Shown one piece after another: positions 38,033-38,195 of a stretch of 64,000 bases of DNA. The notes beneath the pieces are model-generated. The model was given only the letters and a program-made list of their open reading frames with translations. It did no database searches and was not told the DNA's origin. Numbering within the stretch: position 1 is the stretch's first letter; each line of letters begins with the position of its first letter. The stretch lies in assembly GCF_024700885.2 (NCBI RefSeq), contig NZ_CP117016.1. The stretch is one strand, 5' to 3'. A program made the position numbers and the translations under genes. This DNA is from Escherichia coli (lineage in GTDB: Bacteria; Pseudomonadota; Gammaproteobacteria; Enterobacterales; Enterobacteriaceae).

Positions 38033-38121
38033 GGCGATCTTTATTCCTTGTAAAAGTCCCGTCAGGACCGGATTTTCAACGAATTCTCACGACAGAAAAT
38101 TCTCTTCGGACTGGGGGTAGT

Positions 38122-38157
38122 GTCGGATGCACCGCGAATGCGGCTTATCCGACCTAC
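38122..38157. repeat. REP (repetitive extragenic palindromic) element in the nuoL-nuoM spacer
   Basis: gtcggatgcaccgcgaatgcggcttatccgacctac resembles the enterobacterial REP consensus. Confidence 0.65.
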
Positions 38158-38195
38158 GTTCTTATATGCCCAGGGGCAATCCCACAATCCTTAAC

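Follow-up and report, generated by a model that had tools for sequence, protein, structure and literature searches.

A y-type REP element between nuoL and nuoM of Escherichia coli, probably a tolerated repeat in a permissive intra-operon gap

Background

The question raised by this locus is why an operon whose genes are mostly packed end to end carries an untranslated gap with a palindromic repeat between nuoL and nuoM, and what, if anything, that repeat does to the expression of the genes on either side of it. REPs are non-autonomous repeats that are thought to be spread by RAYT/TnpA_REP, and the family was described in 1982-84. Each is an imperfect palindrome of 35-40 nt with a stable stem-loop. 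REPs that lie within operons can stabilise mRNA or modulate expression, as is known from malE-malF and from the his transport operon (PMC12306157, PMC5927463). The initial annotation of the DNA studied here, a stretch of 64,000 nucleotides (the window), had proposed that a REP-like palindrome in the nuoL-nuoM gap might act in the same way, stabilising upstream mRNA or modulating the distal genes.

Results

The window is from the E. coli chromosome and the nuo operon in it is encoded on the minus strand, as are all the features described below unless the other strand is named. The list of open reading frames and the K-12 annotation place nuoA at 49620-50063, nuoK at 40034-40336 and nuoN at 35039-36496. 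The coding sequences of nuoL (38196-40037, 613 aa) and nuoM (36503-38032, 509 aa) were taken from the same list, and in both cases an identical RefSeq match (100% for nuoL) and the K-12 annotation agree. From the TGA stop codon of nuoL (38198-38196) to the ATG of nuoM (38032-38030) there is an untranslated spacer of 163 nt (38033-38195), and thus the two gene names and the 163-bp gap had been given correctly; in K-12 MG1655 the gap is also 163 bp. Counted in bp, with overlaps negative, the junctions of the operon are A-B 15, B-C about 93-105, C-E 2, E-F -4, F-G about 46-52, G-H -4, H-I 14, I-J 11, J-K -4, K-L -4, L-M 163 and M-N 6. The earlier statement that most nuo genes lie within about 15 bp of each other holds for 9 of the 12 junctions, which are 15 bp or less or overlap; nuoL-nuoM is the widest of the three exceptions and nuoB-nuoC the second, and the nuoB-nuoC and nuoF-nuoG gaps had gone unmentioned. 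A 363-bp query spanning the nuoL-nuoM gap found matches in 5423 of 5426 complete E. coli genomes, and FDAARGOS_536 is 100% identical to it. As reading frames the gap has just four mechanical ORFs (24-64 aa); the one of 41 aa with a TTG start is on the sense strand and runs through the repeat. Scanning the gap for promoter and terminator consensus sequences gave no match, and on this ground an internal nuoM promoter in the spacer was rejected.

Several other differences from K-12 were seen in the window. There is a 1.76-kb insertion at 9351-11112 (K-12 position 2362044, near yfaX), which carries a gene for an IS200-like Y1 transposase at 10617-11042 on the plus strand and one for a TnpB/OrfB_IS605 protein at 9391-10560 on the minus strand; because it encodes these two proteins it is assigned to the IS200/IS605 family. 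Two stretches of K-12, yfbK (about 1.56 kb) and yfbN-yfbO-yfbP (about 2.56 kb), are missing from the window, the sites being at about 33116-33135 and 34974-34990, and as a result no more than about 66 bp separate the end of yfbM from the stop codon of nuoN. In the yfbL-yfbM segment the divergence from K-12 is unusually high, with 92.4% identity compared to 97-98% in its neighbours.

The palindrome in the gap, which the initial annotation had called REP-like, is a genuine GTAG-tagged y-type REP and is the same element as in K-12. The consensus pattern, the fold, the copy search and the comparison with a crystallised y-type REP all support this identification, and the full hairpin is 41 nt long (38117-38157), slightly longer than the 38122-38157 claimed earlier. 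On the transcribed strand it reads GTAG-GTCGGATAAGCCGC-ATTC-GCGGTGCATCCGAC-ACTAC, with the 5' GTAG at 38157-38154, a 4-nt loop at 38136-38139 and the closing CUAC at 38120-38117. It is an imperfect palindrome with an AA/GC internal mismatch and it is extragenic, lying between the nuoL stop codon and the nuoM start codon with its GTAG 38 nt past the nuoL UGA. A REP consensus pattern, GATGCNNCGN{3,9}CGNCTTATCNGNCCTAC, was matched exactly on the plus strand at 38126-38157, and 100 shuffled sequences gave no match. As RNA, 38117-38157 was predicted to fold with -26.1 kcal/mol compared to -9.8 +/- 2.5 kcal/mol for shuffled sequences (z = -6.6), and none of 200 shuffles folded as well. With a 45-nt REP query, 5425 of 5426 E. 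coli genomes gave matches at a stringent threshold (E <= 10 against 28 Gb), at 6 to at least 40 places each and with near-identical copies numbering 25 in the median genome; within the 64-kb window there is one copy of this type. The cognate RAYT/TnpA_REP gene that a REP should have in its genome would lie outside the window. A chance palindrome is ruled out by the fold z-score, by the pattern match that shuffled sequences did not give and by the dispersed copies.

The 5' GTAG tetranucleotide is a defining feature of REPs, and GTAGGACGGATAAGGCGTTTACGCCGCATCCG is the 32-mer E. coli y-type REP that was co-crystallised with TnpA_REP (PMC3479197). When the arms of the nuo element were compared with this substrate, 13 of the 14 positions of the 5' arm GTAGGTCGGATAAG and all 7 of the 3' arm GCATCCG agreed, and the nuo element also has the AA bulge, a mismatch that TnpA_REP requires for binding. 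Thus the element shares with the E. coli y-type REP the 5' GTAG, the 41-nt imperfect palindrome, the AA mismatch, the extragenic position and the dispersed near-identical copies, and it differs in nothing essential; the second stem position is U-A here, whereas the classical consensus has C-G. The spacer of K-12 MG1655 differs from that of the window by one base, which is in the REP loop, where the A of the window strain is rare and nine other E. coli strains have C. K-12 annotations presumably give the nuoL-nuoM REP a name; in the 49 kb of the K-12 RefSeq record that were inspected no repeat features are annotated. Rfam searches of the spacer and of four orthologous loci gave only sub-threshold matches, among them the REP-derived family naRNA4 in the spacer itself (19.4 bits, against a gathering score of 59.5) and STnc400 in a REP pair from Citrobacter (30.1 bits).

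When the whole spacer was folded as RNA it gave -58.3 kcal/mol (z = -3.3). In the minimum free energy fold the REP is enclosed by an outer stem whose 5' arm, GGAUUGUGGG (38181-38190), pairs with the 3' arm CCCCAGUCC (38108-38116), and the 3' arm is also supported by comparison between species. This stem begins 5 nt past the nuoL stop codon and is weak in the window, with one wobble pair and a bulge; in E. coli 2016C-3878 it is perfect over 9 bp, and the outer inverted repeat also flanks the segment in Citrobacter R56, K. oxytoca and Superficieibacter. Between the 5' arm and the REP there is a small hairpin, UGCC-CCUG-GGCA (38167-38178), at whose position, by alignment, Citrobacter R56 and a 250-nt Salmonella allele of the spacer have a full left REP. 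The sequence 3' of the REP hairpin is CCCCAGUCCGAAG, which has no U tract, and since the terminator scan of the gap was also negative an intrinsic terminator was rejected. Beyond the 3' arm of the outer stem an AU-rich stretch leads to the motif GAATTCGTTGAAAATC (GAAUUCGUUGAAAAUC; 38071-38086), identified by its conservation. It is followed by a nuoM-proximal hairpin, GGUCCU-GAC-GGGACU (38055-38069), identified by covariation, and by the nuoM Shine-Dalgarno sequence AAGGAA (38044-38049), which was read from the sequence 11 nt 5' of the ATG and is invariant in an alignment of 12 sequences.

The same gap was then compared across species by scanning species-representative genomes with NuoM; the best 80 loci were used, of which 79 allowed the gap to be measured. 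Among these 79 Enterobacterales species it is 24 to 289 nt long (median 146 nt), and in 8 of them it is below 50 nt and predicted to fold weakly or not at all (0 to -5.4 kcal/mol). The comparison shows the spacer to be a mosaic of a conserved core of about 75 nt next to nuoM and a REP-bearing segment of about 88 nt next to nuoL. The 76-nt spacers of Enterobacter cloacae, Citrobacter werkmanii and Atlantibacter are equivalent to the E. coli core with the REP segment missing. Among 10 E. coli strains that carry the REP, a single loop base is all that varies in the core, and the variation is concentrated in the REP segment. Many of the 79 species have no REP in the gap. The REP segment aligns, in Citrobacter sp. 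R56, with a complete pair of head-to-head REPs at the orthologous site, and K. oxytoca has a shortened REP pair there in a spacer that is also 163 nt long. Citrobacter R56 has both REPs, the 250-nt Salmonella allele only the left one and E. coli only the right one; in the Salmonella allele, as in Citrobacter R56 and K. oxytoca, the outer inverted repeat brackets the segment. From the alignment, the small hairpin at 38167-38178 appears to be a remnant of the left, inverted REP after an internal deletion, and the most plausible account of the E. coli REP is that it is the right half left over from a BIME-like insertion that has decayed. The resemblance to a BIME lies in the full pair with the same flanks in Citrobacter sp. 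R56, in the linker-like sequence that E. coli keeps and in the 12-nt remnant of the left REP; the difference is that a BIME has two REPs and in the window the right one alone is intact.

The REP allele of the spacer is carried by 4698 of 5426 E. coli genomes (87%). In 724 of the 5426 (13%), which include O157:H7 and strain C, the spacer is instead an unrelated sequence of 230 nt without a REP. As seen in E. coli strain 142, this allele has a G+C-rich hairpin about 20 nt past the nuoL stop codon and a long palindrome of about 130 nt at the place where the window allele has the proximal hairpin. E. coli and Salmonella enterica subsp. arizonae are identical over all 230 of the 230 nt, and the identity runs about 65 nt into nuoM, whereas in the nuoL and nuoM DNA on either side it drops to about 85%. 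Salmonella, too, has two forms of the spacer, the 230-nt and the 250-nt allele. These comparisons imply a recent replacement of an intra-operon spacer across genera, which may have gone in either direction. The palindrome of about 130 nt, CAGGCGTCATCGGCGAAGTCAG...GTACTTAAGTAC...GATAGCCTG, fills the gap in 26 of the 79 species, including the Erwiniaceae Pantoea and Erwinia, and is found in gaps of Salmonella, Citrobacter and Kosakonia as well; internally deleted forms occur, for example in E. pulveris and K. cowanii. E. coli genomes carry dispersed copies of it, of which a median of 4 per genome could be detected; the window has none. When its core was aligned to that of the ERIC primers, 24 of 34 positions agreed (z about 3.9), and a search of Rfam gave no family match for the palindrome. 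The agreement is suggestive of an ERIC/IRU-like element. Being long and dispersed, it is like the ERIC/IRU palindromes of enterobacteria, which are MITE-like and about 127 bp long.

In the core next to nuoM, the motif GAATTCGTTGAAAATC was found in 24 of the 79 species when up to 3 mismatches were allowed, and in the alignment of 12 core-bearing sequences from 7 genera it is invariant at 15 of 16 positions. The proximal hairpin is paired in 93.8% of the cells of this alignment and has compensatory double changes in 3 of its 7 pairs; its covariation score is 0.396 compared to 0.257 for shuffled alignments, and none of 500 shuffles scored as high. RNAalifold also pairs AAUUC.UU of the motif with AA.GGAAU of the Shine-Dalgarno region, a pairing for which covariation offers no support because every one of its pairs is invariant. 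On the basis of this predicted fold the motif GAAUUCGUUGAAAAUC may pair with the Shine-Dalgarno region of nuoM, and motif and proximal hairpin together could form a translational gate or an RNase E site. In the last 25 nt or so before the ATG, two contexts of the nuoM ribosome-binding site were seen, ...ACAAGGAATAAAGATCGCC-ATG and ...ATAAGGGACATACTTAGCT-ATG. They cut across taxonomy in genera of the Enterobacteriaceae, both being present within Citrobacter and both within Enterobacter, a distribution that would be consistent with shuffling of the spacer by recombination.

Discussion

A probable explanation of these observations is that the nuoL-nuoM REP is a selfish repeat tolerated in a permissive gap, and that any effect it has on mRNA stability is modest at most. 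A REP pair enclosed by an outer stem of 9-10 bp would have inserted just past the nuoL stop codon and then decayed, and what is left of it fills about 88 nt; the nuoM-proximal 75 nt or so would be an older core, with its covarying hairpin and nuoM's own ribosome-binding site. The untranslated gap would thus have served as a landing site that different lineages filled with REPs, with ERIC-like palindromes or with nothing. Since the REP is transcribed in the sense orientation, it should form a stable hairpin able to slow 3'->5' exonucleases. The net effect on nuo expression is probably small nevertheless, because nuoM is translated from a Shine-Dalgarno sequence of its own and the operon acts as a single unit; that the gap holds no U tract and no terminator or promoter consensus also favours a small effect. 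We infer that the REP is a passenger from its dispensability across strains and species and from the published tables of mRNA decay and of 3' ends, which hold no signal for it. There is also evidence against this explanation. A REP or REP pair is present at the orthologous site in E. coli, Citrobacter, Klebsiella oxytoca and Salmonella, and judged from this distribution the retention seems longer than would be expected of a neutral repeat. Four kinds of stem substitution were seen in the 10 E. coli strains; each of them leaves a G-U pair on the sense strand, and the outer stem has been kept as well. The pattern hints that the hairpin of the RNA, or of the sense strand, is under selection, though four events give a p of about 0.06 at best. 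The non-REP allele has a hairpin too, and it may be that some hairpin at this site is favoured.

The main rival to a tolerated repeat is the role that had been proposed for the palindrome, that of an mRNA stabiliser. After endonucleolytic cleavage in the spacer the REP would block PNPase and RNase II, so that the nuoA-L message outlives that of nuoMN or the expression of the distal genes is tuned. The hairpin is well suited to this, as it is stable, sense-oriented and 38 nt past the nuoL stop; the stem substitutions that preserve pairing in E. coli and the long persistence at the orthologous site would agree with it, and the conserved, AU-rich and mostly single-stranded stretch 38071-38107 could be an RNase E entry site. 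The precedent is malE-malF (PMC5927463, PMC12306157). Like the stabilisers of malE-malF and hisJ-hisQ, the nuo REP lies within a polycistronic message, in the sense orientation and 3' of a coding sequence. In those operons, however, the cell needs an excess of the upstream product and measurements have shown differential decay, whereas the nuo subunits are needed equally and none has been reported: complex I requires NuoL, NuoM and NuoN at 1:1:1, which gives no evident reason to express them differently. Moreover, 13% of E. coli genomes, like many related species, lack the REP. In a genome-wide screen for differential decay (PMC5927463) nuo was among the 390 operons analysed, but nuoL, nuoM and nuoN are in no result table and the nuoL-nuoM junction was not called. 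In the Term-seq tables of 3' ends (PMC7815308) there is none in the nuoL-nuoM spacer (K-12 coordinates 23929xx-23932xx; the spacer itself is at 2393042-2393204). These tables, like those of the decay screen, are thresholded and come from few growth conditions and a wild-type RNase background. For those conditions, then, there is provisionally no 3'-end accumulation at the REP, an outcome that the initial annotation had named as counting against its proposal, and of the proposal itself the general part stands, as some intra-operon REPs do act in this way, while its extension to the nuo REP finds no support in the decay and Term-seq tables. We searched the literature for work linking nuoL or nuoM with REP or ERIC and found nothing specific; the supplements of PMC3936743 have no nuo or b227x entries, those of RepRanger have no nuo entry, and the NaF/REP paper does not mention nuo. 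On balance a stabilising role is unlikely, though it deserves to be kept in view. Elsewhere in the operon the Term-seq tables do have 3' ends, within the genes nuoN, nuoL and nuoG and also between nuoB and nuoC. The last of these, at K-12 position 2403873 (the gap is at about 48849-48941 in the window), is classed there as an 'orphan'.

The remaining roles that a REP might play here fit the data less well. As an attenuator or pause site, the REP, or BIME remnant, would cut the read-through of RNA polymerase into nuoMN, possibly with the help of Rho, for which the 163 nt without translation would be the target. No other untranslated stretch of the operon is as long, and attenuation associated with BIMEs has been reported (Espeli et al. 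2001, cited in PMC12306157). We regard it as very unlikely, given a single intact REP rather than a full BIME, no U tract, no terminator consensus, no Term-seq 3' end in the spacer and so much structure in the spacer that Rho loading would probably be disfavoured. A role at the level of DNA, as a site of binding or cleavage for DNA gyrase, DNA polymerase I or IHF or in the organisation of the nucleoid, is one of the functions that have been described for REP pairs or clusters, and the window has a single intact REP. Such activities are known for REPs and BIMEs (PMC3479197), and the spacer weakly resembles naRNA4, which derives from REP325, but with a score that is far under the gathering score. 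As the element is also dispensable in 13% of strains, this role is highly improbable. Finally, a REP may stall the ribosome that terminates on the gene upstream, here nuoL, and thereby provoke mRNA cleavage and trans-translation, a mechanism proposed for about half of the E. coli REPs (Liang, Rudd and Deutscher 2015, as described in PMC12306157). According to the same source such a REP must be within 15 nt of the upstream stop codon. The GTAG of the nuo REP is 38 nt past the UGA, beyond this limit, and for this reason the mechanism does not apply. The outer stem does begin 5 nt past the stop, but it is weak, owing to its wobble pair and bulge, and we give this mechanism next to no credence.

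A further explanation concerns the spacer as a whole, which could be a modular cassette for post-transcriptional control that is exchanged horizontally between enterobacterial genera. The core, with GAAUUCGUUGAAAAUC, the covarying hairpin and the Shine-Dalgarno sequence, would gate the translation of nuoM or mark an RNase E processing site. The hairpins upstream of it, whether REP, REP pair, ERIC-like palindrome or plain G+C stem, would be swappable 3' barriers that keep nuoA-L and nuoMN equally stable, and the 230-nt allele of E. coli O157-type strains and S. arizonae would be an adaptive allele swap. Its support comes from the conserved core and from the identity of the 230-nt allele between E. 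coli and S. arizonae. We consider this quite unlikely as an account of the locus, and a selfish repeat in a permissive gap remains the reading that we prefer.

Conclusions

The element itself was already known, as part of the reference genome K-12 and of a long-described family. What this analysis adds is its context, an intra-operon gap that is a hotspot where repeats turn over and alleles are replaced between genera, and in which a short core adjacent to nuoM has been conserved. If it is true that this core, or the hairpins upstream of it, control the expression or processing of nuoMN, it would bear on how equimolar complex I is made from a 13-gene, 15-kb operon.
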